Source of the DNA: Candidatus Staskawiczbacteria bacterium
GTDB taxonomy: Bacteria; Patescibacteriota; Minisyncoccia; Minisyncoccales; Staskawiczbacteraceae
Direction: 5' to 3'
Length of the DNA stretch: 64,000 bases
Assembly (NCBI GenBank): GCA_026395215.1
Contig: JAPLZC010000006.1
Location: 8,081 to 72,080, forward strand
Part shown: positions 8,360 to 63,121 of the stretch, one piece after another
How the letters are laid out: the number at the start of each line of letters is the position of its first letter
Numbering within the stretch: position 1 is the stretch's first letter
Translations under genes and position numbers: made by a program
Notes under the pieces: model-generated
Database searches by the model: none
Told to the model about the DNA's origin: nothing
The model's input: the letters and a program-made list of their open reading frames with translations, nothing else

Positions 8360-10015
8360 ATGAGTAGTTCAAAGTTATATCCGCCGATAGTATTCGGCGT
8401 GTTTGGTACATTCGATCCGCGACTGGATGGCGCTGGCCCTCAGGACCGCGAACGGTCGAACTTCATCGTGAAAATGACCGCGGCAATGATTGCGGATCAT
8501 GTGAAAATGCCGGACGGTAATCCGGTGAACGTGTTTGAACCAAAAACCTTGGTTGGTGGTGAAAGGGATGCTGACATTGTCGCCGGAATGTTCAAAGGTG
8601 CCGGCGTGCAAGTTCTTGTTTGCGTTTCCGACACCTGGGCATATCCCGGCAAGACCGCGATTGCACTGGCAAATCACTTCCCAAACGACATGCCCCTGCT
8701 TCTTCTCTGCGGTAACTCGGCGCCCAAACCGGGAGTGGTTTTTGACCACGCCTGCAGCGGTGCCTTTGCGCAGATGGGACGCAAGGCTTATCTCATTGTT
8801 GGTACCTGGGACGATGTTGGCCAGAAACCGGTGATGACCGTAGAGACCGCCAGCGAACTGATTTCCTGGTGCTACGGCATGTTGCCCAAAGCCGGCTGGA
8901 AGGGAAAGCGTCTGCTTTTCCACGGCGCTCATTCCATGGAAATGGAAACTGCGATGGCGCATGTCATTGCTACCCGGAATCAGTTCGGGGTGCATATTTC
9001 CATGAACGACATGACCGAAGTCTCCGACCGTCTCACCAAGCGAGAGTACAGCGATTCCGAGCTTTATAACCTTCGCAGATGGATGGACAGGATGCTCGGC
9101 AAACGCATTCAGATTCGGAATGTCGAAGATGAGGGAAAATTCCAGCAAGAGCTGGCTATGTACCTCATCACGCGTAACCTCATGAACGAGGTCAATGCAA
9201 TCGGCGGCGGGTTTATGTCTCAGCTCTCGTGGGGCTCGGACAAACGCATTTTGCCTCGGCCGGTTGCCGATGCAATGGAAAGTCTTCACAACAGTACATT
9301 TGACCATAACGGCCCCAAAACACCCAGGCCCTATGCAACGGAGTCAGACGCACAAGGCGGGTTGACAATGTTGCTGCAGTTCTGGATCTCCGGCGGTATG
9401 CCTCCGCTTTTCGCGGACTTCCGCAAGGTGTGGGAGGCCAATGATTTGGCTGATGTGGCCGCCAGTCTGAAAGTGGTACTCTCTGATGATGGGTGGGCCA
9501 AGCGAGGAATTGTTGATTACGACAACTCCGGTTCGGCCTCGTTCAACTGGGCTGGAAAACCCGGCATGACGGCCGAGGAATGCACGGCCAAGGTCTCAAT
9601 GCCTTTGGCTGATGAATTTTATTTTCCCGGCGGAGGTAACAGTGTGACATTCATGACTCCTGGCGACATTGACATGTTGACCGGCCGGCTCTGGTATGTT
9701 CAGTCCAAAGACAGGTGGGCGCTTACCTGGGACGACGCAGTTACCTGCGAACTTCCCGCTCCGCTGGCCAACAAACTCGCCAGTCTGTCTTCGCCTGGCT
9801 GGCCACACACATGGGTCATGTTTAAGAACTTTGAGCTGGCGCTGGTCAAGCACATTTCGCCCGCCAACCACTGGCACGCAGTCTGGAACACAGACCGCCG
9901 GCGGCTGATGTATGCCATGGATGCCTTGGGTATCCAGGACCTGCATGCTTCCAAGTTCCCAGCGTACACCCCCGGGCACGACATCCCGCCAACACTGCTT
10001 TCGCTGATCAAGTAG
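8360..10015 (+). CDS. L-fucose isomerase family protein (FucI-like aldose-ketose isomerase), GC-rich cassette c
   Basis: These blocks align with E. coli FucI as I recall it: NSTFDHNG..YATESDAQGG (NSSFDWNG..VATENDSLNG), FADFRKVW (FADVRTYW), DNSGSA (INSGSA), FPGGGNSVTF (FRGGGYSSRF), WPHTW (WPTTW) and ANH. GGGGAG lies 6 nt upstream of the ATG. Confidence 0.8.
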   Translation: MSSSKLYPPIVFGVFGTFDPRLDGAGPQDRERSNFIVKMTAAMIADHVKMPDGNPVNVFEPKTLVGGERDADIVAGMFKGAGVQVLVCVSDTWAYPGKTAIALANHFPNDMPLLLLCGNSAPKPGVVFDHACSGAFAQMGRKAYLIVGTWDDVGQKPVMTVETASELISWCYGMLPKAGWKGKRLLFHGAHSMEMETAMAHVIATRNQFGVHISMNDMTEVSDRLTKREYSDSELYNLRRWMDRMLGKRIQIRNVEDEGKFQQELAMYLITRNLMNEVNAIGGGFMSQLSWGSDKRILPRPVADAMESLHNSTFDHNGPKTPRPYATESDAQGGLTMLLQFWISGGMPPLFADFRKVWEANDLADVAASLKVVLSDDGWAKRGIVDYDNSGSASFNWAGKPGMTAEECTAKVSMPLADEFYFPGGGNSVTFMTPGDIDMLTGRLWYVQSKDRWALTWDDAVTCELPAPLANKLASLSSPGWPHTWVMFKNFELALVKHISPANHWHAVWNTDRRRLMYAMDALGIQDLHASKFPAYTPGHDIPPTLLSLIK

Positions 10016-10216: not shown

Positions 10217-10252
10217 GTGGTATTTAGGCTAGAGAGAAAGAAGGCAGGAACA

Positions 10253-11386
10253 ATGAAGCGGCAAATGTTTAATCGTGGGCCAGTCACACAAAGGTCAATG
10301 CCTTTTTGGCCGTTGCAGTACCGCGGGACAGATCCTTTTGGCGGTCCGATTTTGGGCGCCATGGATTCATTGGAAACAGCCGATCTGCTGTGTTGGGCGG
10401 GAAAAGAAGGATTCATTGAACTAACCTCGGCCCATGATGATGACTTGGTGCCGTGGAATCCGAAGAGGCCGGAAGACGACCTGGATAAAAGCGGACTAGT
10501 CTACGGACGGCTTATGGAAATCCGTCAAAAACTCGACGCCGCCAACGTGGGTTTTCACATGGTTACCTGTTGTCTGCACGGAGACCCTATGTTCCGGCGC
10601 GGTGGGCTAACCAACCCCGATCCGAAAATTCGTGAACTGGCTAAGCTCAAAGTTCAGCGCACTTTGCGCATTGGCAGTATGCTCGGCGCCAAGCGGTTCA
10701 CCTACTGGGTGGCCCGCGACGGTTTCGAGGTGATGATCACTGTCGATCCGAAGGTGATGGACTGGTTGGCTGAAGGGTTGAATAGCGCAATCAGCTACAT
10801 GACTGAGGCCAGTCTGGACTACGATATGGCCACAATTGAACCCAAACCCAACGAACCGCGCGGACACATGTACCTGCCAACAGCAGGTCATGCCGCGGCC
10901 TTCACTCAAGCTCTCAACGAGCCAGGTTTCTGGAAAGTGAATCCGGAATTAACCCAGCACGAAGGTATGGCTGGGCTTGACCCGATTACTTGCATTCGCC
11001 TGCTCGTCAAGCTCGACAAATTGGGATTCCTACACTTCGGCAACCAGATTAACGGTCAGTTCGACAACGATTTTCCGCCGTTGGTTGGCCCGGAGCATCT
11101 CAAAGAAACAGCCGAGATGTTCCGCGTGCTTGAACAGCTCGGCTGGAAAGGTGTGGTTGAATATGACTGCCACGCATTGCGTTCTGAATTGAATCCGGAT
11201 GATTCGCTCGGATGCAAGAAGGACTTCATTGTAGACTGCACCATGGGCCTTTCCATCTCGCTCAAATTGGCGGAGCGGATTAAAAGCCTTGTGTTCGGCA
11301 TGCGCGAGAGCCAAGCTGATCTCAATTCGATTATGTTGCTTTGCAATCTTTCAGACGAAGATGTTAGTCATTACCTTGTTCGATAA
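10253..11386 (+). CDS. xylose isomerase-like TIM-barrel protein (divergent XylA family), GC-rich cassette d
   Basis: Blocks AHDDDL (XylA FHDxD), YWVARDGFE (FWGGREGYE), IEPKPNEP (EPKPxEP), NPELTQHEGMAGL (NIExNHAxLAGH) and FDNDFPP (WDTDQFP). Start taken at ATG 10253, with GAAGG upstream, rather than GTG 10217. Confidence 0.7.
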   Translation: MKRQMFNRGPVTQRSMPFWPLQYRGTDPFGGPILGAMDSLETADLLCWAGKEGFIELTSAHDDDLVPWNPKRPEDDLDKSGLVYGRLMEIRQKLDAANVGFHMVTCCLHGDPMFRRGGLTNPDPKIRELAKLKVQRTLRIGSMLGAKRFTYWVARDGFEVMITVDPKVMDWLAEGLNSAISYMTEASLDYDMATIEPKPNEPRGHMYLPTAGHAAAFTQALNEPGFWKVNPELTQHEGMAGLDPITCIRLLVKLDKLGFLHFGNQINGQFDNDFPPLVGPEHLKETAEMFRVLEQLGWKGVVEYDCHALRSELNPDDSLGCKKDFIVDCTMGLSISLKLAERIKSLVFGMRESQADLNSIMLLCNLSDEDVSHYLVR

Positions 11387-15850: not shown

Positions 15851-16999
15851 ATGAATATGTTAAAGGATTTATTTAAGGATTATATTTATCCTGTAGCGGT
15901 GTTTTCGGGGGGGATGGTAGGCGTGGGGTTTTTGTCCCTGCCATATATTGCAGTGCAGACCGGTATTTGGATTATGCTTGGTTATTTTTTGGTTATAACG
16001 GCAATAGTAATTGCGCTTAATTTAATTTTTTGCCAAATAAGTTTAAAGACCCCTGATTACAAAAGATTCCCGGGATTTGTGGGACATTACCTTGGAAAAT
16101 ACGCCAAAGCCTTTTCAATGATATCGGTAATTTTTGCAACCGTTGGAGTACTTCTGGTTTATTTATTAGTTGGTGGCAAGTTTCTAACTACTGTTTTCCA
16201 ACCAATTTTTTCCGGGAGCGTTTTAACCTATGTGCTTATTTATTTTTTCATTGCAAGCATAATTATATATTTTGATATAAAAGTTGTTGCCAGAGCGGAG
16301 TTTTGGATTATAGCCTTACTTTTTTTATCTCTGCTTGTAATTTTTATAGAAGGTTTTTCCCAAGTCAAACTCTCTAATATATTTATTTCAAATTTTAAAC
16401 TTCAAATTTCAAATTATTTCCTGCCTTATGGTCCGCTGTTATTTGCTTTGTGGGGGATTGGGTTAATACCAGAAGTGGAGGAAATGCTTGCCGGCAGAAA
16501 ACATTTACTTAAAAAAACAGTTTTGATTTCAACTATAATAGTTTCTGTTTTTTACTTTTTGTTTATTCTCTTAATAACCGGAATTACCGGAGCAAGAACC
16601 GAGCAGACGGCCTTAATTGGACTTAATAATTTTTTACCAGGTATACTTGTTTCAGTTGCTATTTTTATGGGTATTCTCGCAACTTTTACCGCTTTTATTA
16701 CCCAGGGAATTATTTTTAAAAAAACACTTATGTTTGATTTAAAAATCAAGCATTGGCAGGCCTTTGTAATGACCTGCTTTCCACCGTTGATACTTTTTTT
16801 GCTTGGAATAAACTCTTTTATACCCTTGTTGTCCTTTATTGGAGGAGTTCTTTTAGGAATCAACGGAATTTTAATTTTATTAATGTATAGAAAAATATCT
16901 TGCTTGCCGGCAGAAAAAATAAAAAAGAATATCATAATCTGGGTTTTGTCTTTAGTCTTTTTATTAGGTTTAATTTACGAGATAATATACTTTATTTAA
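15851..16999 (+). CDS. amino-acid-permease-like polytopic membrane protein
   Basis: 382 aa with about 11 hydrophobic helices. The N-terminus resembles aromatic/amino-acid transporter families. The family call is weak. Confidence 0.5.
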   Translation: MNMLKDLFKDYIYPVAVFSGGMVGVGFLSLPYIAVQTGIWIMLGYFLVITAIVIALNLIFCQISLKTPDYKRFPGFVGHYLGKYAKAFSMISVIFATVGVLLVYLLVGGKFLTTVFQPIFSGSVLTYVLIYFFIASIIIYFDIKVVARAEFWIIALLFLSLLVIFIEGFSQVKLSNIFISNFKLQISNYFLPYGPLLFALWGIGLIPEVEEMLAGRKHLLKKTVLISTIIVSVFYFLFILLITGITGARTEQTALIGLNNFLPGILVSVAIFMGILATFTAFITQGIIFKKTLMFDLKIKHWQAFVMTCFPPLILFLLGINSFIPLLSFIGGVLLGINGILILLMYRKISCLPAEKIKKNIIIWVLSLVFLLGLIYEIIYFI

Positions 17000-21645: not shown

Positions 21646-21774
21646 TTGCTATAATGTCTAATTAACCTAATTATTCTAATTAACCTAATCAAGTTCTAAA
21701 TTTAGAAATTTAAAAATTAGAAATTATTTAGAATAATTAGAGCAATTAGCATAATTAGAATAATTTTAAATATT
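21646..21774 (+). promoter_or_regulatory. rplU promoter and long AT-rich hairpin leader
   Basis: Extended -10 TGcTATAAT at 21647-21655. Perfect 14-bp stem 21669-21682 / 21752-21765 (aattattctaatta / taattagaataatt). Central 14-nt palindrome ttctaaatttagaa at 21694-21707. Confidence 0.6.
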
Positions 21775-22090: not shown

Positions 22091-22112
22091 AACCCGCAAA
22101 AGCGGGTTTTTT
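22091..22112 (+). terminator. rho-independent terminator after rplU
   Basis: aacccgc/gcgggtt stem, 4-nt loop, T run. Confidence 0.85.
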
Positions 22113-22247
22113 GTTGCGCAAGTATTGACAACAATTTAAGAAGGAGTATTGTAAAGGTGAATATAAAAATAACACGATCTATTGTTTTTATTATACAAAT
22201 AAATTAAAATAAATAATTAAAATTTATAAATATAATATTAAAAAATT

Positions 22248-25200
22248 ATGGCAAAAACTATAAAAAGAATTTTTAAGTCACAAGCTGGTAAAATAGCAAT
22301 CGGCGCAAGTGTTATATTAACCATTTCATTGGTCACCGTCGGCGTCTTAACCGGTTTTTTTATCCCCGCCGGAAACGCTTTAGCAGCAAGAACAGTAATG
22401 TCTGTAAACTTAAATGGTGTAGCGATGTCTTCGGGTAATAGTATTATTGTTGGGGGGGGGTGGAGTAACAATTTCTGCACAAATTAACGTTAATAATGAT
22501 GGAGGAAGTGATTGGCAATCAACTGGATGGAGAATTTCTACAACAGCTCCAGGTTCTTATAATTGTATAAATCATACAAACCATAATGGTAATGGTAGTT
22601 ATGCGGAAACTTTTAATGTAGCGGCTCCATCAGGTACAGGGACTTACGATGTTTATTTTAAGGCTTTTAGTGACAACTCTTGTGGTTCTGGCAGTTCTGG
22701 CAGTTTTTCTTACAATGACGGTATTGTTGTTAATCTTAAACAGATAACCTCGGCGACAGTTAATGGAGGTTCGAGCGTGACGGTTGCTCCAGGCGCCTTG
22801 ATCTCGACAGTTGTTAATCTTACCGCAACCGGTACTGGTAACGACAATTATTGGAGCTCGACTTCATGGAGGTTATCAACAACTGCTCCAGGGTCTACAA
22901 CCTGCGTAAACACTTCTCCAGATTCAAACACAGCAGGAAATTATACTTCTAACGCTTTTAATGTTACGGCCCCTGCTAGTTCTGGAACATACAATTTATA
23001 TTTGATCGCAAGAGAAAATAATTCTTGTGGCGGTGCCTCCAGTTCAGTGTATACATTATTAGGCGCAGTAACAGTTGTTACCGATAGTACCCCTCCGACA
23101 GTTTTGAGTATTGTCATGGATGATACTGATTTTAAGATTGGAGACACAGCTCAAGTTGATATTACGTTTTCAGAGGCAGTTACGGGTTTTGATAATAGCG
23201 ACATAACAACAATAGATAACGGTACCTTAACACCAGTATCTTCATCTGATGGCGGAGTAACTTGGTCAGCGGTATTTACTCCCACAAACGATATTGAGGT
23301 TCCTGCAGATCCATTTGGAATACCATCGAAAAACTTAATAGTTGTAACTTTGACTGGCTTAGCTGATTTAGCCGGAAACGCCGGAGTTGGGACAGAAAGA
23401 TCGAGCTATTATTCAATAGACACAAAAGCACCAGTTTTGACTCTACCTTCCAATATTACAGTAGAAGCTACTGGCCCAAGTAGTGCAGTGGTTACATGGG
23501 AGGCATCGGCAACTGATTTAGATCCAGCCAATCCAACGGTAACTTGTGCTCAGAGTTCTGGTTCAACTTTTTACCTTGGATCAGAAGGAGTTAATTGCTC
23601 TGCTACCGATACCGCTGGCAACACAGCCACTGGTGGTTTTAGCGTAACAGTGCAAGATACTACTCCACCAGTATTGACAGCTCCAGCTGATCAAACCTTT
23701 GAGGCAACTGGATCAATTGATTCTTATTCATTAGTTTTGGCAACAGCTACTGATATTGCTGACGCAAGCGTAGATATTGATTCTAATCCAACTAGTTTTC
23801 CATTAGGAACAACCCTTGTTACTTGGACCGCAACTGATGATTCTGGTAATACAGCCACAGCTACTTCTAATGTGACTATTGTTGACACTACCGCACCAAT
23901 AATTGCTTTAATGGGTAACAATCCTTTTGATTTATATATTAACAATGATTACTCTGAACCTGGATTTTCTGCTGTAGATATTGTTGATGGTGATATAACA
24001 GGAAGCGTTACTGTTGAGGGAGAAGATTTTGACAATACTGTTTTGGGAGCACATATTATTACTTATAGTGTTACTGATGCTAATGGAAATAGCACAAGTG
24101 TGACTAGAACAGTAAATATTGTTGATAGAAATAAACCGATTATTTATAGAGTTGGCGCCAGTCCATTAACAGTTGAAGGCGGATCAACTTACACCGATCA
24201 AGGGGCAACAGCCATTGATAGAGACGGGTCTGATATTACTTCATCAATTATTACAGTAAACCCAGTAAATACCGTTGTTTTGGGTGGTTATACCGTGACA
24301 TACGATGTTACTGGAGCTGAATTAGGTGATTTGACTGGGACAAATATTGCAGACCAGGCAAAGAGAATCGTGAATGTTGTTGATACTACTGCGCCGATTA
24401 TCTATGTAGATCCAGGCGCTGTAAATGTTAATGTTGGCGATTCTTATATTGATACTGGAGTAACAGCTTCTGATATTATTGATGGTGATTTAACTTCTTC
24501 AATTGTAAGAAGCGGGACATTCACCGACACGTCAACACCTGGAACCTACACTATTCTTTATGACGTCTCAGATTCTGCTGGAAATCCCGCAATAACGATT
24601 CAACGATCAATCAACGTAGTTGTTCCCGACACCAAGGCCCCAGATCTTACCTCTGCAGATTTGATTGATGGTATAACAATAACAGCCTTCTTTGATGAAA
24701 ATCTCGACGACGATGCATTACAGGCAGGCGACTTTGGAGTTAAAATAAATGATATTGGTGAATTTATTTATCCAATTAGTGCGGTTGATGACAATGGCAC
24801 TGTCACATTAATATTCACTGACAGTTTCGGAACTGCCAATTCTCTTAAACTTTATATTAATCCTAATACACCAATGAGTATTAAGGATATTGCTGGTAAC
24901 GAACAAACAGGTTATTATGGAGTAACCGTAAATGACAAAATTAAGCCAGTTATTACCTTAACCGGTGACGCTACTGTAAATCTATTTGTTGGTGGTTCTT
25001 ATATAGAAACTGGAGCAACTGCTAGTGACATCATTGACGAATTAATTACAGTTACAGTTACGGGTACAGTTGATACAAATACAGTTGGAACATATACTAT
25101 ATATTACAATGCATCTGACTTGGCTGGTAATCCTGCAAATGAAGTAACTAGAACAGTTAATGTTAATTTGCAACCGGTAAATGGTGGGTGGTCGGATTGG

Positions 25201-26001
25201 GGGACTTGTTCGGCAACTTGTGGAGGTGGAACACAGACTAGGACTTGTACAAATCCAACTCCAGCTAATGGAGGTGCTACGTGTGTAGGTGAAACAAGCC
25301 AAACATGTAATCCACAATCGTGTGGTGGAGGTGGAGGGGGAGGAATAACGTTGGCTCCGGAATTGATGATTTCGGGAATTGCTTCTACGGGTGTTACAAC
25401 AGATACATTGACTCTTACATGGACAACTAACTTGCCTGCTAGCAGTTATGTAATTTACTCGGCAGAAGGTGAAAATCATACATTAAATATGGCAGATAAT
25501 GCTGGGACACCGCCATTGTTTGGATATGCTCACGCAACAGCAGAGCTTGATACAGATCCAAAGGTTACATCGCACACAGTAGTAATTACAGGTTTAACAC
25601 CTTTTACAAATTATTACTTTAGAACAGTTTCAAGAGGGTCATTGGCCGTTAGTGGAGAATATAAAGTAACAACTCCAGCGGTATTGGCAGCAGCAACTGT
25701 GGCAGCTGCCTCAGAAGAGGTGAGCGTTGCCCCAGAGGGTGCAGAAAACAATGGTGCAACAATTGCTCCTCAAATTGAAGAGGTGGCAGGGACAGAGGCA
25801 GTTAGTCAAACAGAAGTTCAAACAGAAACTCCAGCAGAAACAGTAGTGGGAGAAAATCAAGCTACAGATGATTCCAATCTATATGCAGCTGGATTTATGG
25901 GAGCTGCTGGTAAATATTTCTGGCCGTTGTTAATTATATTAATAATTGTTATAATAGGGTACGGAGTTTACTACTTTATAATTAAGAGAAAGAAAAAATA
26001 A
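22248..26001 (+). pseudogene. giant surface/adhesin-like protein interrupted by a frameshift at a G9 tract (signal-anchor exon 22248-22487, body 22447-26001)
   Basis: The N-terminal ORF has a signal/TM segment. The body has 2 N-terminal repeat modules, Ig-like, HYR-like and about 5 DUF5011-like Ig repeats, a TSP1 repeat, an FN3-like domain, an Ala/Glu linker and a C-terminal TM plus KRKKK. The repeat-module alignment continues across the frameshift. Confidence 0.75.
22452..22460 (+). repeat. G9 homopolymer at the frameshift point of the giant surface protein
   Basis: Nine consecutive G. Removing one G (or adding two) fuses ..[10 protein letters not shown] to [10 protein letters not shown].. 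in frame. Confidence 0.9.
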
Positions 26002-26005
26002 AAAT

Positions 26006-26176
26006 ATGGAAGAAATACCGGGAAAATATTTTGCGGCGGATTTGGGGGGGGCTGATTTGATGGACGTAGCTTCAAAACACCCTGTGGTGTTTTGGGTAAT
26101 ATTTGTTGTGGTGGTTGTTGTTGGGATAGGATACGGCATTTATTACTTAGCCAAAAGAAAAAAGGCACAAGACTAA
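26006..26176 (+). CDS. small C-terminally anchored protein (56 aa, not in the ORF track)
   Basis: ATG lies 5 nt after the giant gene stop. Sequence MEEIPGKYFAADLGGADLMDVASKHPVVFWVIFVVVVVVGIGYGIYYLAKRKKAQD mirrors the giant protein C-terminus (GKYF...[14 protein letters not shown]). Contains an in-frame G8 tract at 26044-26051. Confidence 0.45.
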   Translation: MEEIPGKYFAADLGGADLMDVASKHPVVFWVIFVVVVVVGIGYGIYYLAKRKKAQD

Positions 26177-26191
26177 TTATTATAAAAAAAG

Positions 26192-26224
26192 ACAGTCCTT
26201 TGACAAGTTCGGGACTGTTTTTTT
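26192..26224 (+). terminator. rho-independent terminator after the surface-protein locus
   Basis: acagtcc/ggactgt stem followed by a T7 run. Confidence 0.75.
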
Positions 26225-26342
26225 GTTTTACGACGTACATCTTGACATAATTTTTAATAAGAGTAGAATTGATGAAAATGCGTTTGTTGTGTTGTTCGTT
26301 GTAAACGGGAAAGTGAGTTAAACTCTACGAAAGGTTAAACCA

Positions 26343-32912: not shown

Positions 32913-35408
32913 ATGGCGATTATTATTCCGGGTTTAATTTTAGTCTTTTTATTGATAGTCATGGCATTTGTCATGGTTTTAAATGCCGAAACAAATGAAA
33001 AGAATTCAGTTTTTGGTGGTTTGGAAATGACCTTGTTTTTGGTAATGATGCCAAAATACACTCCTAAGAAAGAAGGGGAGCAACAGAAAGAAGAAAAAAT
33101 GTTAATTGCCCAAATGGAGCAGGTTTTTGCAAACTTTCTGTATTTGAAAAAACCAAAAATGTTTCAAACTCCTCCGTCTTGCGCTTTTGAGATTGCGTCT
33201 CAAATTGGAAGTTCTGATATATCTTTTTACGTGGCTGTTCCAAAATATTTGGAAACGGTTTTCGAAAAATATGTGCAGGGAGTTTATCCAAATGCGGTTG
33301 TTGATAAAGTACCGCAAGATTACACAATTTTTGAGCCTCAAGGAGCTACTGCTGCTGCATATCTTAGGCTTTCAGAAAGTTTACTTTTTCCAATTAGCAC
33401 ATATCAGACTTTAGAAACAGATCCTTTGGCTGTGGTCACAAATAATCTTAGCAAAATTTCTGCTGATGAAGGAGGGGCTGTTCAGGTTCTAATTAGACCG
33501 CTGTCTAAATTAAATTTAAGAAGAAAAGGCGAAAAAGCGCTGAAAAAAATAAGAGAGGGAAAAGGAATACGGGAAGCCGTGGTACAAGCATCTCACGGTT
33601 CTTTTAGAGAGGCATTAGAGGATGCATTAAAGGTATTGCTTGGAAAAAGTCAAAAGAAAAAAGAAGAAGAGCTGGGTTTGAGAGAAAAAGAACAAAGCTT
33701 TGATCAAAAAGGGTATGATGCAATTCAAAATAAAATTCAAAAACAACCTTTTGAAGTAAATATAAGAATTGTTTCGTCTGCTCAGTCAGGACAGAGAGCA
33801 GAAGAAATTTTACATCAGCTTACTTCGGCATTCAGCCAGTTTTCTTTGTCAGCCATAAATAGTTTAGAGCCAAAAGAGGTTTATAAAAGAGAATTGCAAA
33901 AATTGGTTTATGATTTTAGTTTCAGAAATTTTAGTGAAAAACAGTCCAATGTGTTGAATCTTGAAGAGTTAGCATCTATTTATCATTTTCCAACGCAATA
34001 TGTTGAAACCCCATATATTAAGGCCGCAAAATCAGTCAGCGCACCTCCGCCTTCAGATTTGCCGGACAAGGGCGTATTGGCAATTGGAAAAGTTACTTAC
34101 AGAAACGAAGATAAAAAAGTTTATTTTGCATCACGCGTAGACAGGCGCAGACACTTTTACTATATTGGACAAACAGGTACTGGAAAATCTTGGTTTATGA
34201 AGGGTATGATTATTCAGGATATTTTAAATGGTGAAGGGGTTGCAGTTATTGATCCGCACGGAGAATTAATAGAAGATATATTGGCATTTATTCCAAAAGA
34301 AAGAATTGATGACGTTGTTATGTTTGAGCCGTTTGATTTGGAAAGGCCATGTGGATTGAATATGCTAGAGTACGACAGTCCCGAGCAGAAAGATTTTGCA
34401 GTGCAAGAAATGATAGCCATATTTATGAAGCTTTTCCCGCCGGAAATTATTGGTCCAATGTTTGAGCACTATATGAGAAACGCAATGTTAGCTTTAATGG
34501 CAGATAAAGATAATCCTGGAACATTGGTTGAGATTCCAAAAATGTTTACCGATCCCGCATTTTTGCAGACACGATTGGCAAAGGTTTCCGACCCTATTGT
34601 GCGATCTTTCTGGACAAAAGAATGGGCGCAAACAACCGGCTCTACAAGGTCTGATATGTTAGGATATGTTGTTTCCAAGCTTGGTAGATTTATTGAAAAC
34701 GAAATGATGAGAAATATTATAGGTCAGTCTCATTCTGGTTTTAATTTGGGCGATATAATGGATGGGAAAAAAATATTTTTGGCAAACTTATCTAAAGGTT
34801 TGACCGGCGAAGTTAACAGTTCGTTGCTTGGATTAATTTTGGTTTCAAAAATGCAAATGGCCGCTATGAGAAGAGCAAGAATTGCCGTAGAAAAAAGAGA
34901 AGACTTTTATTTATATATTGACGAGTTCCAAAACTTCACAACTGATTCAATTGCATCAATTTTATCTGAGGCTAGAAAATATAAGCTGTGCTTAATAATG
35001 GCTCACCAGTATATGCCACAACTAACTGACCAAATTAGGGAAGCGGTTTTAGGAAACGTTGGAACAATGGGGGCATTTAGAATTGGGGCTGAAGATGCAG
35101 AAAAACTAGAAAAGCAATTTGAGCCTGGGTTCTCACGATTTGACCTGGTTAATTTGGATAACTTTACAATGGTAATTAAGATGATGATAAATGATAAAAT
35201 TTCAACTCCGTTTAAAATGAATACTCTTCCTCCGCCAAAAGGCAAGCCAGAAATTGTTGAAGCCATCAAAAAAATATCAAAGTTAAAATACTCCAGAGCC
35301 CGCGCTATTGTAGAACAAGAAATCGCCACCCGTTCTTTCGCCGAACCTCCTCCAGTTGCGCCAGTTGCCCCAACTCCAGTTTCACCCATTATCCCACCTA
35401 AAAAATAA
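32913..35408 (+). CDS. VirD4/TraD/TraG-like (type IV coupling-protein-like) membrane ATPase
   Basis: N-terminal TM helices. Walker A GQTGTGKS, Walker B FYLYIDEFQNF and MAHQY. Pro-rich C-terminal tail. Confidence 0.7.
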   Translation: MAIIIPGLILVFLLIVMAFVMVLNAETNEKNSVFGGLEMTLFLVMMPKYTPKKEGEQQKEEKMLIAQMEQVFANFLYLKKPKMFQTPPSCAFEIASQIGSSDISFYVAVPKYLETVFEKYVQGVYPNAVVDKVPQDYTIFEPQGATAAAYLRLSESLLFPISTYQTLETDPLAVVTNNLSKISADEGGAVQVLIRPLSKLNLRRKGEKALKKIREGKGIREAVVQASHGSFREALEDALKVLLGKSQKKKEEELGLREKEQSFDQKGYDAIQNKIQKQPFEVNIRIVSSAQSGQRAEEILHQLTSAFSQFSLSAINSLEPKEVYKRELQKLVYDFSFRNFSEKQSNVLNLEELASIYHFPTQYVETPYIKAAKSVSAPPPSDLPDKGVLAIGKVTYRNEDKKVYFASRVDRRRHFYYIGQTGTGKSWFMKGMIIQDILNGEGVAVIDPHGELIEDILAFIPKERIDDVVMFEPFDLERPCGLNMLEYDSPEQKDFAVQEMIAIFMKLFPPEIIGPMFEHYMRNAMLALMADKDNPGTLVEIPKMFTDPAFLQTRLAKVSDPIVRSFWTKEWAQTTGSTRSDMLGYVVSKLGRFIENEMMRNIIGQSHSGFNLGDIMDGKKIFLANLSKGLTGEVNSSLLGLILVSKMQMAAMRRARIAVEKREDFYLYIDEFQNFTTDSIASILSEARKYKLCLIMAHQYMPQLTDQIREAVLGNVGTMGAFRIGAEDAEKLEKQFEPGFSRFDLVNLDNFTMVIKMMINDKISTPFKMNTLPPPKGKPEIVEAIKKISKLKYSRARAIVEQEIATRSFAEPPPVAPVAPTPVSPIIPPKK

Positions 35409-60144: not shown

Positions 60145-60945
60145 TTATACTTCGGAAGAGAATCTTTTAAATACAATAACAAACAGGAATATTAGAATGA
60201 GAATTCCTAAAATCCATAAATACCAGCGTTTTAAAAATCCCATAAAACCGGTAGATTCTGAAACAGATTCAGAAACAGGAGCCACGGCTGCAGCGACAGC
60301 GACAGCGTCTGGAATAGCAGGCTCTTGAATTATTTTGCAATCATTTGAGCAATTATCATTTGTTTCGCCTAAATTGGGTTCGCACAATCCGTTTCCGCAA
60401 TTTTGATTAACTGCCGGGATGGGGGGGACACTTGGCTGGACTGGCTGGACTGGCTGAACTTGCTGAGCTGGGGCACAATAGATATTGTAATCGGCAGAAC
60501 TTGTGGCGCAAGTTGATCCATCACATTTAAATGTGTTTAAGCATTTGCTGGCAGAACATTCATCTAATGTACAACTGTTGCTGTCTGCGCAATTTTTGTA
60601 TAATCCGCTTTCAACTCCTTTTGAGTCAAACCAGTGTATAGAACCGCCATAGCATGCTTTTGTAGAATAAGGATTATAGGTGTTAACCTGTTGCACTTGA
60701 GGCAAAATTGGGTTGTATGTGCATTGCCCATATTGGCAAGTCTGTCCGTTGTAGCAACCAGTGTATAAATCTTGCTGAGTTCCGCAGGAATCATACCAAT
60801 AAATATTGCTACCTACGCAGAGCTTGTAAGCGTGATAGGTGCAATTGCCATATGAATTATATTGAGCGTTAGCAAAACCGGGCAATACTATTGCCAGCGC
60901 ACAAAACATCACTATAAATATCCCAAAAACAAGTATTTTATTCAT
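60145..60945 (-). CDS. Cys-rich secreted protein with a C-terminal membrane anchor
   Basis: Signal peptide. Repeated Cys-rich Y(W/H)(Y/F)DSxG modules, a QPV x3 tandem repeat (9-nt DNA repeat near 60437-60463), then GFMG followed by a TM helix. Confidence 0.6.
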   Translation of the reverse strand: MNKILVFGIFIVMFCALAIVLPGFANAQYNSYGNCTYHAYKLCVGSNIYWYDSCGTQQDLYTGCYNGQTCQYGQCTYNPILPQVQQVNTYNPYSTKACYGGSIHWFDSKGVESGLYKNCADSNSCTLDECSASKCLNTFKCDGSTCATSSADYNIYCAPAQQVQPVQPVQPSVPPIPAVNQNCGNGLCEPNLGETNDNCSNDCKIIQEPAIPDAVAVAAAVAPVSESVSESTGFMGFLKRWYLWILGILILIFLFVIVFKRFSSEV

Positions 60946-61543: not shown

Positions 61544-63121
61544 ATGACTGACGAACAAAAAAAGATATTAGAAAGGCAGTTGTGGGGCGTAGCAAATGCG
61601 CTTCGTGGAAAAATGAATGCTGATGAATATAAAAATTATATCCTCGGTTTTATTTTCTACAAATACCTTTCTGAAAAACTTGAGCAGTATGTGAATAAAA
61701 AATTGCTCGTCCGTGAAAAATTTACTTTTGCGGAGATAAAAGAAAATACGCAGGAAGGTAAAAAATATCTGGAACACATTAAAACCGCATGTGTCGGCCA
61801 TCTTGGATTTTTTTTGAAGCCAATAGAGCTTTTTTCATATCTGGTTAAAAAGGGTAAGGGAGAAATAAAAGATAAAGATACATTTATTCTTGAAGATTTA
61901 AAAAATGTTCTTAATGCCATAGAAAAAACTTCTGCCGGAACTGCAAGCGAAGACGACTTTAAGGGACTTTTTGATGACGTGGATTTAACATCTTCAAAGC
62001 TTGGCTCAAGAGAGAAAGAGAAAAACGAGGTTGTGGTTGAAGTTCTCTCACTATTGGACGGCATTGATTTTCAACTTGAAAATGCCAAAAGTGATTTGCT
62101 TGGCGATGCTTACGAATACTTAATTGGTGAATTTGCAGCCGGCTCGGGCAAAAAAGGCGGTGAATTTTACACGCCTGCGCAAGTGTCCCGACTGCTTGCT
62201 CAAATCGCCTCAAATGATAAAAAGCGTGTGCGTTCGGTTTATGATGCTGCTTGCGGTTCGGGTTCGCTCCTGCTTCGTCTTGGCGAGTTTACCGAAGTTA
62301 CAAATTACTACGGACAAGAGCTAAATCCTACTACCTACAACCTTGCAAGAATGAATATGATTTTGCATGGCGTGCAATTTGATCGTTTTTCTCTTCTACG
62401 GGGCGACACTTTAACCGAAGACATGCACCCTGACCTTAAGGCGGAAATAATCGTCGCAAATCCACCTTTTTCATTGCAATGGAAGGGGGAAAGCGATCCT
62501 GTGCTGGCTCATGACGACAGATTCTCGCAATATGGCAGACTTGCTCCAAAAAGTGCCGCAGATTATGCCTTTGTGACTCATATGCTATACCATTTGGCAG
62601 ATAACGGCACTATGGCAATTGTATTGCCTCACGGAGCGCTTTTTCGCTCCGGCGCCGAAGGCCAAATCAGAAAATACATAATTGAAAAGCAAAACTATCT
62701 TGATGCGGTTATTGGCTTGCCATCAAACCTATTTTATGGGACAACAATTCCGGCCACAATTTTAGTTTTCAAGAAATGCAGAAAAGATGACGAAGACATT
62801 TTGTTTATTGACGCCTCAAAGGAATTTGAAAAAGTTGGTAACCAAAACAAACTAACTGACGAAAATATCAAGAAAATTTTTGAAACTTACAAAAACCGCA
62901 AAGAGGTTGAAAAATATTCTCACAAAGCAGGCATAGAAGAAATAAAGGAAAACGACTTTAACCTTAATATTCCAAGATATGTGGACACATTTGAAGAAGA
63001 AACTCTGGTTGATATTGAAGCCGTGGCAAAAAATTTGAAAAAATTGCACACAGACGAGACTGATTTGGAAAGCAAAATTGAGAAGTTTTGCAAAGAATTA
63101 AAAATTGATAAGCCGTTTTAA
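61544..63121 (+). CDS. hsdM: type I restriction-modification system methyltransferase subunit
   Basis: HsdM N-terminal block LWGVANALRG..YKNYILGFIFYKYLSEK, SAM motif DAACGSGSLLL and catalytic NPPF. Confidence 0.9.
   Translation: MTDEQKKILERQLWGVANALRGKMNADEYKNYILGFIFYKYLSEKLEQYVNKKLLVREKFTFAEIKENTQEGKKYLEHIKTACVGHLGFFLKPIELFSYLVKKGKGEIKDKDTFILEDLKNVLNAIEKTSAGTASEDDFKGLFDDVDLTSSKLGSREKEKNEVVVEVLSLLDGIDFQLENAKSDLLGDAYEYLIGEFAAGSGKKGGEFYTPAQVSRLLAQIASNDKKRVRSVYDAACGSGSLLLRLGEFTEVTNYYGQELNPTTYNLARMNMILHGVQFDRFSLLRGDTLTEDMHPDLKAEIIVANPPFSLQWKGESDPVLAHDDRFSQYGRLAPKSAADYAFVTHMLYHLADNGTMAIVLPHGALFRSGAEGQIRKYIIEKQNYLDAVIGLPSNLFYGTTIPATILVFKKCRKDDEDILFIDASKEFEKVGNQNKLTDENIKKIFETYKNRKEVEKYSHKAGIEEIKENDFNLNIPRYVDTFEEETLVDIEAVAKNLKKLHTDETDLESKIEKFCKELKIDKPF

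Follow-up and report, generated by a model that had tools for sequence, protein, structure and literature searches.

A nine-guanine tract that divides the gene of a giant surface protein in Candidatus Staskawiczbacteria, a candidate for slipped-strand switching

Homopolymer switches and the Staskawiczbacteria locus

The closest described counterparts of the locus presented here are the poly-G and poly-C loci of Campylobacter jejuni, Helicobacter pylori, Neisseria and Haemophilus, and in particular the Campylobacter-type contingency loci, in which a tract in the 5' coding region of a surface-structure gene changes by one nucleotide (nt) and thereby toggles a long open reading frame (ORF). In AT-rich genomes such as that of C. 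jejuni, poly-G runs of at least eight nucleotides change their length at roughly 1e-4 to 1e-3 per division. Our locus is located in a 64-kb stretch (64,000 nucleotides, referred to below as the window) of contig JAPLZC010000006.1 from a Candidatus Staskawiczbacteria bacterium, where a run of nine G (G9) separates a short ORF with a signal peptide (ORF1) from the 1,184-codon body (ORF2) of a giant surface protein, and where a run of eight G (G8) lies within the small gene immediately downstream. The locus resembles the systems above in carrying G/C homopolymers of at least eight nucleotides in an AT-rich genome, in the 5' coding position of the tract in a gene for a surface structure, in the long ORF that a change of one nucleotide would toggle, and in the presence of a second tract-bearing gene in the same cluster. 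It differs from the Campylobacter-type loci in that it is known from consensus sequences only, all with the same tract length, in that the tracts occur in only this operon within the window (P of about 0.1 for their enrichment) and are conserved in no orthologue, and in that the host is a free-living or episymbiotic bacterium of the Candidate Phyla Radiation (CPR) from an environmental metagenome rather than a host-adapted pathogen.

Another comparison is offered by Buchnera and Blochmannia, in which pseudogenes are frameshifted at homopolymers, the tracts being poly(A), with partial rescue by transcriptional slippage. Our locus shares with these cases a single-base homopolymer indel that splits an otherwise intact gene in the small, AT-rich genome of a likely symbiont, and leaky rescue is conceivable here too, whereas the tract is poly-G and the gene encodes an accessory surface protein rather than a core function. 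In terms of the protein itself, the likeness is to multi-immunoglobulin (multi-Ig) surface adhesins with Big_12, HYR and DUF5011 domains, which have the same body domains, a signal peptide and a C-terminal anchor. Unlike those adhesins, the window protein carries two N-terminal modules of about 115 amino acids (aa) that belong to an unannotated family as well as a TSP_1 repeat, its anchor lacks LPXTG, being a plain transmembrane (TM) segment followed by a KRKKK tail, and a free-standing 56-aa paralogue of this anchor is encoded by the neighbouring gene.

Reading frame and domains across the G tract

The results showed that ORF1 reads through G9 and meets a stop codon 27 nt past the run, that ORF2 is open in the +1 frame relative to ORF1, and that taking out one G or adding two fuses ORF1 and ORF2 into one ORF of 1,250 codons. 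Tract lengths of G8, G11 and G5 are in frame, and G9 is out of frame. The G9 run is one base too long, and therefore translation from the ATG is expected to end after 79 codons with the 1,184-codon body out of frame; since the tract is 5'-proximal, at codons 68-71 of the 1,250, a change in its length would give full ON/OFF control. The coordinates of G9 and G8, the two ORFs, the distance to the stop codon and the +1 frame had all been given in the original prediction, which was made from the letters of the window, and all of them match the sequence; likewise, the repair proposed there (one G out or two in) reproduced the fused sequence that it quoted. Read in this way, ORF1 and ORF2 are the two halves of one gene that is broken at the G run. 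The three coding sequences (CDS) of the GenBank record, with products of 79, 1,183 and 56 aa, are therefore two halves of one frameshifted gene and a neighbour, and the 79-aa 'hypothetical protein' and the leaderless 1,183-aa 'DUF5011 protein' of the public annotation are frameshift artefacts of a single gene.

To relate the two sides of the break, the N-terminal modules were compared with each other and with a wider family. The claim that homology runs straight across the break was borne out, as an alignment that begins upstream of the break showed the fused module 1 and module 2 to be 42% identical over 104 aa (E 1e-21). A family profile seeded with the two window modules and two distant homologues (P0045 and P0057) matched fused residues 44-164 over positions 2-117 of the hidden Markov model with an E of 6.5e-52, and module 2 with an E of 4.8e-53, and residues invariant among the homologues flank the tract on both sides. 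A search of 1.84 billion proteins with this profile retrieved at least 723 representatives at the 50% cluster level (E <=1e-3), which argues that the module of about 115 residues is a real and widespread domain family; no Pfam or NCBIfam model was found for the N-terminal module, for ORF1 or for the 56-aa ORF. A word-index query with the first 395 fused residues returned a list swamped by Big_12 matches, in which the protein itself did not appear, and its repetition with the modules only gave four distant matches.

The position of the module within the family proteins is informative for ORF1. Among the best 150 representatives, 84 have the module starting within the first 60 residues, and a hydrophobic leader precedes the module in 65 of the 71 such early-module proteins with an M start. 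The leaders of the family typically end in A-x-A followed by (A/S)RTINSxTLNG, and the leader of ORF1 ends in A-L-A followed by ARTVMSVNLNG. Because this pattern of leader and module matches that of the family, the signal peptide and the first part of the domain are assigned to ORF1, and the remainder of the domain to ORF2. The earlier description of ORF1 as a signal/TM segment is therefore correct as far as the leader is concerned but incomplete, as this leader is a signal peptide of the cleavable type and ORF1 also carries the first two beta-strands of Ig-like module 1. An AlphaFold model of module 2 gave an eight-stranded beta-sandwich (predicted local distance difference test score 82, predicted template modelling score 0.78), in which the turn equivalent to the tract is APGA at residues 19-22, between strands E16-18 and E23-32. 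Judged by this model, neither half of module 1 could fold on its own. When module 2 was searched against the folds in the PDB, only generic Ig-like or E-set sandwiches were found, with an E of 1e-3 or weaker, and no informative relative among them. The family is also marked by the motifs (A/S)RTINSxTLNG and WxSTxWRIxTTAPG, and its module is usually the first after the signal peptide and often in tandem (proteins P0192-P0339; loci L015-L047); its hosts are Betaproteobacteria (Curvibacter, Rhodoferax, Dechloromonas), Chloroflexia, Acidobacteriota, Gaiellaceae and Saccharibacteria.

Downstream of modules 1 and 2, the order of domains in the giant protein is Big_12, two HYR, four Bact_surface_Ig-like/DUF5011, TSP_1, an fn3-like domain, a Thr/Glu/Ala-rich linker and the TM anchor. 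The matches exceeded the Pfam gathering scores for Big_12 (94.2 bits against a cut-off of 27, E 6e-27), HYR (73 bits against 21.7, two domains, E 2.5e-20), Bact_surface_Ig-like (188 bits against 27, four domains, E 2.5e-56) and TSP_1 (29.9 bits against 21.6). The product of about 1,250 aa looks like an adhesin-like protein that is secreted and held in the membrane by its C-terminus. This agrees with the surface-protein reading of the original prediction, in that a signal-peptide-like leader, Ig-like, HYR, DUF5011, TSP1 and fn3 domains and a C-terminal TM anchor were all found, from which the localisation is predicted. The TSP_1 match places a thrombospondin type 1 repeat at 25189-25323 inside a surface protein of a CPR bacterium, a domain familiar chiefly from extracellular proteins of eukaryotes. 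A candidate for a second split giant gene (P0001 and P0020) was rejected, being an unrelated Big_12 protein on a 1x long-read contig full of frameshifts.

Proposed slipped-strand switching and its rivals

The reading that we favour, with a confidence slightly short of an even chance, is that a real slip from G8 to G9 has taken place, that the gene is currently OFF and that this state is reversible by slipped-strand mispairing. On this account G9 would have arisen from G8 through slipped-strand mispairing during replication, and the G8/G9 run would mutate at a far higher rate than other parts of the giant gene, for which reason the tract would be expected to keep toggling between in-frame and out-of-frame lengths. 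The outcome would be stochastic ON/OFF phase variation with the OFF state dominant in the sampled populations, and the G8 of the co-transcribed small gene would constitute a second switch, currently ON. Such switching may be an evolved contingency function or a by-product of a Gly-rich loop. Poly-G slippage, as known from Campylobacter and Neisseria loci, is orders of magnitude faster than the occurrence of a second disabling mutation in 3.5 kb, and since changes in the length of G8/G9 would outpace such a mutation, the giant gene is probably switchable in practice. Among the features by which contingency genes are recognised, the locus has a tract of at least about 7-8 nucleotides, a 5'-proximal position from which the frame of the full ORF is switched, and a product predicted to be surface-exposed. 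The second tract reported in the original prediction was also found as described, as G8 in the 56-codon gene that lies directly downstream of the giant gene and is co-transcribed with it. Compared with the family consensus, the turn of module 1 in the G8 state has one residue more, a sign that the tract may have grown by slippage earlier.

The tracts were further assessed for enrichment. With a guanine plus cytosine (GC) content of 37.6%, the window contains only two G/C runs of eight or more, namely G9 and G8, both of them in one surface-protein operon; base composition alone makes G9 very unlikely, and GGG is the rarest Gly codon, at 17% in the other genes and 13% in the giant gene. No G/C run of seven or more was found in about 62 kb of related Staskawiczbacteria DNA. 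The original prediction called a G run of this length conspicuous, but a fairer null, a shuffle of synonymous codons in which proteins and codon usage were kept, yielded 0.49 expected G runs of eight or more in the coding sequence of the window versus the 2 seen, with P(>=2) = 0.095, and for this reason the tracts are unusual yet not statistically compelling. Two runs of G7 also occur in the window, one at 15907-15913, at about codons 19-21 and in frame in an amino-acid permease gene (15851-16999), and one at 60421-60427 in a minus-strand ORF of 266 aa that has no annotation. In three relatives (L007, L009/L010 and L013), the stretches compared, with the orthologous permease gene among them, are free of G/C runs of seven or more.

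Besides this modest enrichment, several other results weigh against a switch. GGG at the equivalent turn was seen in 2 of 173 family modules, the window module being one of them, while the consensus is APGA, and G/C runs of seven or more inside the module were absent from all 33 homologous genomic loci, which belong to Betaproteobacteria, Chloroflexia, Acidobacteriota, Gaiellaceae and one Saccharibacteria. The conserved tract position expected of a contingency gene was consequently not seen among the homologues compared, and the comparison with related genomes that had been proposed as a check gave no tract at this position, neither in the family modules and loci nor in four close relatives, which do not have the gene; within the reach of this comparison, one of the two observations that the original prediction had named as refuting was therefore made. 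The closest homologue of the N-terminus is 41% identical, and a single-protein query of GTDB genomes and JGI metagenomes found no orthologue of it, both the organism and the gene being rare. Its absence from the four close relatives also indicates that the giant gene is dispensable and could simply be decaying. Tract-length variation was absent from the three consensus assemblies (the metagenome-assembled genome, MAG, and two Logan assemblies), all of which have G9 and G8, with both Logan contigs running straight through the G9 tract, and the fused ON protein was not present in a collection of 15 billion proteins, in which the cluster membership of the three proteins was checked. The material, moreover, consists of one organism, two sequencing runs and one 64-kb window.

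Many of these points would equally be expected of a recent pseudogene, in which the slip from G8 to G9 inactivated a dispensable and recently acquired accessory gene, so that the OFF state is fixed and decaying and reversion is of no consequence. We regard this as the strongest rival, albeit a rather unlikely one when taken by itself. It is favoured by the confinement of the gene to a lineage-specific island missing from the four relatives, whose RmuC is 90-92% identical, by the OFF length in all three assemblies, by the lack of significant tract enrichment and by the lack of tract conservation in the family. In addition, the ORF is disrupted relative to intact homologues, in all of which module 1 is continuous. 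A gene in decay might, however, be expected to carry several independent lesions, and the count in 3.75 kb was one, at the tract; no further lesion was found in the remaining 1,184 codons, which are without a stop or a second frameshift, and the 56-codon partner gene, the promoter-like site and the terminator are all intact. It is also established that a homopolymer such as G9 reverts much faster than second lesions accumulate, and since reversion outpaces further lesions in this way, a permanent OFF state is hard to separate from an OFF phase.

Whether the ninth G is real was addressed through separate read sets. Logan contigs from SRR20698644 and SRR20698641 were 100% identical to the window over 6,797 and 3,640 nt, respectively, and both have G9; the G8 is present in the SRR20698644 contig and in a second SRR20698641 contig (L005). 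Exact-protein look-ups with ORF1, L21, the 56-aa ORF and RmuC placed the locus in only two Logan runs, both G9/G8. This complete agreement of two separate runs with the window makes a random error of assembly or polishing unlikely; the non-reproducibility across read sets and assemblers that marks an artefact was not observed, the same G9 being present in two Logan assemblies and in the NCBI MAG. A sequencing or consensus error, by which the true tract would be G8 and the gene intact and constitutively ON, is thus considered improbable. Homopolymers are classic sites of indel errors, and the MAG and both Logan assemblies may come from the same project and sequencing chemistry, in which case a systematic error would be common to all of them. 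Against this, the two runs were assembled through a different pipeline and otherwise agree fully with the window, the length and identity of the contigs point to accurate short reads, for which consensus errors at a homopolymer of nine nucleotides would be rare, and the neighbouring G8 and both G7 tracts are all in frame. The alternative of a consensus error raised in the original prediction is in this way weakened, while a chemistry-wide systematic error still has some room.

Recoding, in which G9 would be the working state and slippage of RNA polymerase or +1/-2 slippage of the ribosome on GGG GGG GGG would provide low constitutive expression of the full-length protein, appears very improbable. 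The tRNA-Gly would re-pair perfectly in the +1 or -2 frame within the run, three consecutive codons of the rarest Gly type could pause ribosomes, and the body ORF is intact; however, there is no stimulatory RNA structure downstream of the tract (folding z = 0.47 and 0.10), no stop or known hungry-codon context at the shift site, with the 0-frame stop following only downstream, and no Shine-Dalgarno-like element at the site. The slippery site is moreover conserved in no homologue, and the product of ORF1 alone, a signal peptide with two beta-strands, would be senseless as a second product. Unprogrammed, low-level slippage on GGG GGG GGG by RNA polymerase or ribosomes is possible. Finally, two genuine genes as in GenBank, that is, a 79-aa membrane protein and a protein of 1,183 or 1,184 aa that starts within the overlap, are hardly credible even though NCBI annotates three separate CDS with no pseudogene flag, since strands 2 and 3 of one and the same beta-sandwich domain are separated by the break, and an independent start of ORF2 at the TTG (22447) is unlikely because it has no AT-rich leader of the kind seen at other genes, including the ATG at 22248, and because the product, despite its extracellular domains and TM anchor, would be without a signal peptide.

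Returning to slipped-strand switching, the further claim that the operon is a true contingency locus, with independent poly-G ON/OFF switches for the strain-specific giant adhesin and for its small membrane partner, is one that we hold to be doubtful. The original prediction had proposed a contingency locus for the giant protein, and the split gene, the 5'-proximal tract, the surface product and the second tract are in keeping with it, but the enrichment (P of about 0.1) and the lack of any homologue with a tract are not. If the operon is a true contingency locus, it would be the first homopolymer phase variation described in the CPR; a search of the literature gave no report of phase variation in Patescibacteria or of homopolymeric tracts in the CPR, and nothing useful on Staskawiczbacteria, on mismatch repair and mutS in Patescibacteria or on phase-variable poly-G tracts in metagenomes. 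Variation of CPR surface proteins has so far been linked mainly to diversity-generating retroelements, and these bacteria are thought to live attached to host cells. If the tract does switch, a strategy that is classic among pathogens, here as stochastic ON/OFF control of a giant adhesin, would also be used by an uncultured episymbiont from the environment, and a simple read-count assay would be available for switching in metagenomes; if the reads show a fixed G9 or G8, the locus would be an ordinary pseudogene or a consensus error.

The island and the rest of the window

A 4.1-kb island (22113-26241) behind rplU is made up of the giant gene and the 56-codon gene; rplU itself lies between the giant gene and the RmuC gene two genes upstream of it. 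RmuC is 100% identical to a protein from an NCBI MAG assigned to Candidatus Staskawiczbacteria. In the four relatives the order ATPase-RmuC-L21-(small ORF)-methyltransferase is kept while the giant gene and the 56-codon gene are absent, and by alignment the island is inserted after the L21 terminator and ahead of the promoter that serves the following gene. A TTGACA hexamer (-35) is found at both ends of the island (22125 and 26242), and the alignment shows a single copy at this place in the relatives. The anchor of the giant protein has a paralogue in the 56-aa protein, a separate polypeptide that is 41% identical to it over 44 aa (GKYF...GYGxYY...KRKK). In the relatives, the interval from L21 to the methyltransferase contains an 81- or 83-aa ORF (L007 and L009), an OTCase (L013) or no called gene (the P0132 contig). 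The features of the locus are collected in Table 1.

Table 1. Positions in the window of the tracts, reading frames, protein segments and regulatory sites of the locus
Feature	Position	Strand	Description
rplU (L21) intrinsic terminator, left flank of island	22093-22112	+	CCCGC-AAAA-GCGGG, then T run; same hairpin in L007 and L009
Promoter-like site of island	22125-22152	+	TTGACA, 16 nt, TATTGT; 10/12 matches
ORF1	22248-22487	+	79 aa: signal peptide, beta-strands 1-2 of module 1, 9 out-of-frame codons, TAA; GenBank hypothetical protein MCX6720408.1
Signal peptide	22248-22385	+	Residues 1-46; K/R-rich n-region, hydrophobic core, A-L-A before A-R-T; putative cleavage site
Ig-like module 1	22377-22740	+	Fused residues 44-164, split by the frameshift; profile match only with one G removed
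ORF2, gene body	22447-26001	+	1,184 codons, no internal stop; GenBank MCX6720409.1 'DUF5011 domain-containing protein'
G9 homopolymer	22452-22460	+	Encodes the Gly-rich turn that joins beta-strands 2 and 3 in module 1
Ig-like module 2	22729-23085	+	Fused residues 161-279, intact paralogue of module 1
Seven-glycine run	25324-25344	+	GGT GGA GGT GGA GGG GGA GGA; poly-Gly without a homopolymer
C-terminal TM anchor and KRKKK tail	25915-25998	+	From the translation
56-codon gene for small TM protein	26006-26176	+	Start codon 4 nt past the stop codon of the giant gene; in frame as sequenced; GenBank MCX6720410.1
G8 homopolymer	26044-26051	+	Codons 13-16 of the 56-codon gene (TTG GGG GGG GCT), currently in frame; encodes L-G-G-A
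Terminator hairpin of island operon	26192-26225	+	ACAGTCC ... GGACTGT, then T7; found by eye, missed by the automated scan (loop possibly above its 8-nt limit)
Promoter of downstream 86-codon ORF, right flank of island	26242-26269	+	TTGACA, 16 nt, TAGAAT; common to relatives

Two places near or within the locus were marked by breaks in the Logan contigs. The contigs of SRR20698641 break at the seven-glycine run, with an overlap of 30 nt (25330-25359), and that of SRR20698644 reads through; the break at this hexanucleotide-like repeat could be due to in-frame heterogeneity of repeat length or only to low coverage in SRR20698641. Between rmuC and rplU, at 21660-21760, there is an AT-rich stretch of low complexity with reiterated AATTAGAA and TTTAGAA motifs, where SRR20698644 has a gap of 33 nt between two contigs, one ending at 21686 and the other beginning at 21720, which is also where the locus contig of SRR20698641 begins.

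Elsewhere in the window, a Shine-Dalgarno-like motif was seen upstream of only about 10 of 50 long ORFs, most starts being located behind A/T-rich leaders, which suggests initiation independent of Shine-Dalgarno pairing in this genome. The segment 8001-12000 has a GC content of 47-52% versus about 36% for the genome, encodes an L-fucose-isomerase-like protein (8360-10015) as well as a xylose-isomerase-like TIM barrel (10217-11386), and may have been acquired horizontally. An 831-aa ATPase resembling a type IV secretion system coupling protein or HerA is encoded at 32913-35408, and the methylase of a type I restriction-modification system (HsdM) at 61544-63121.

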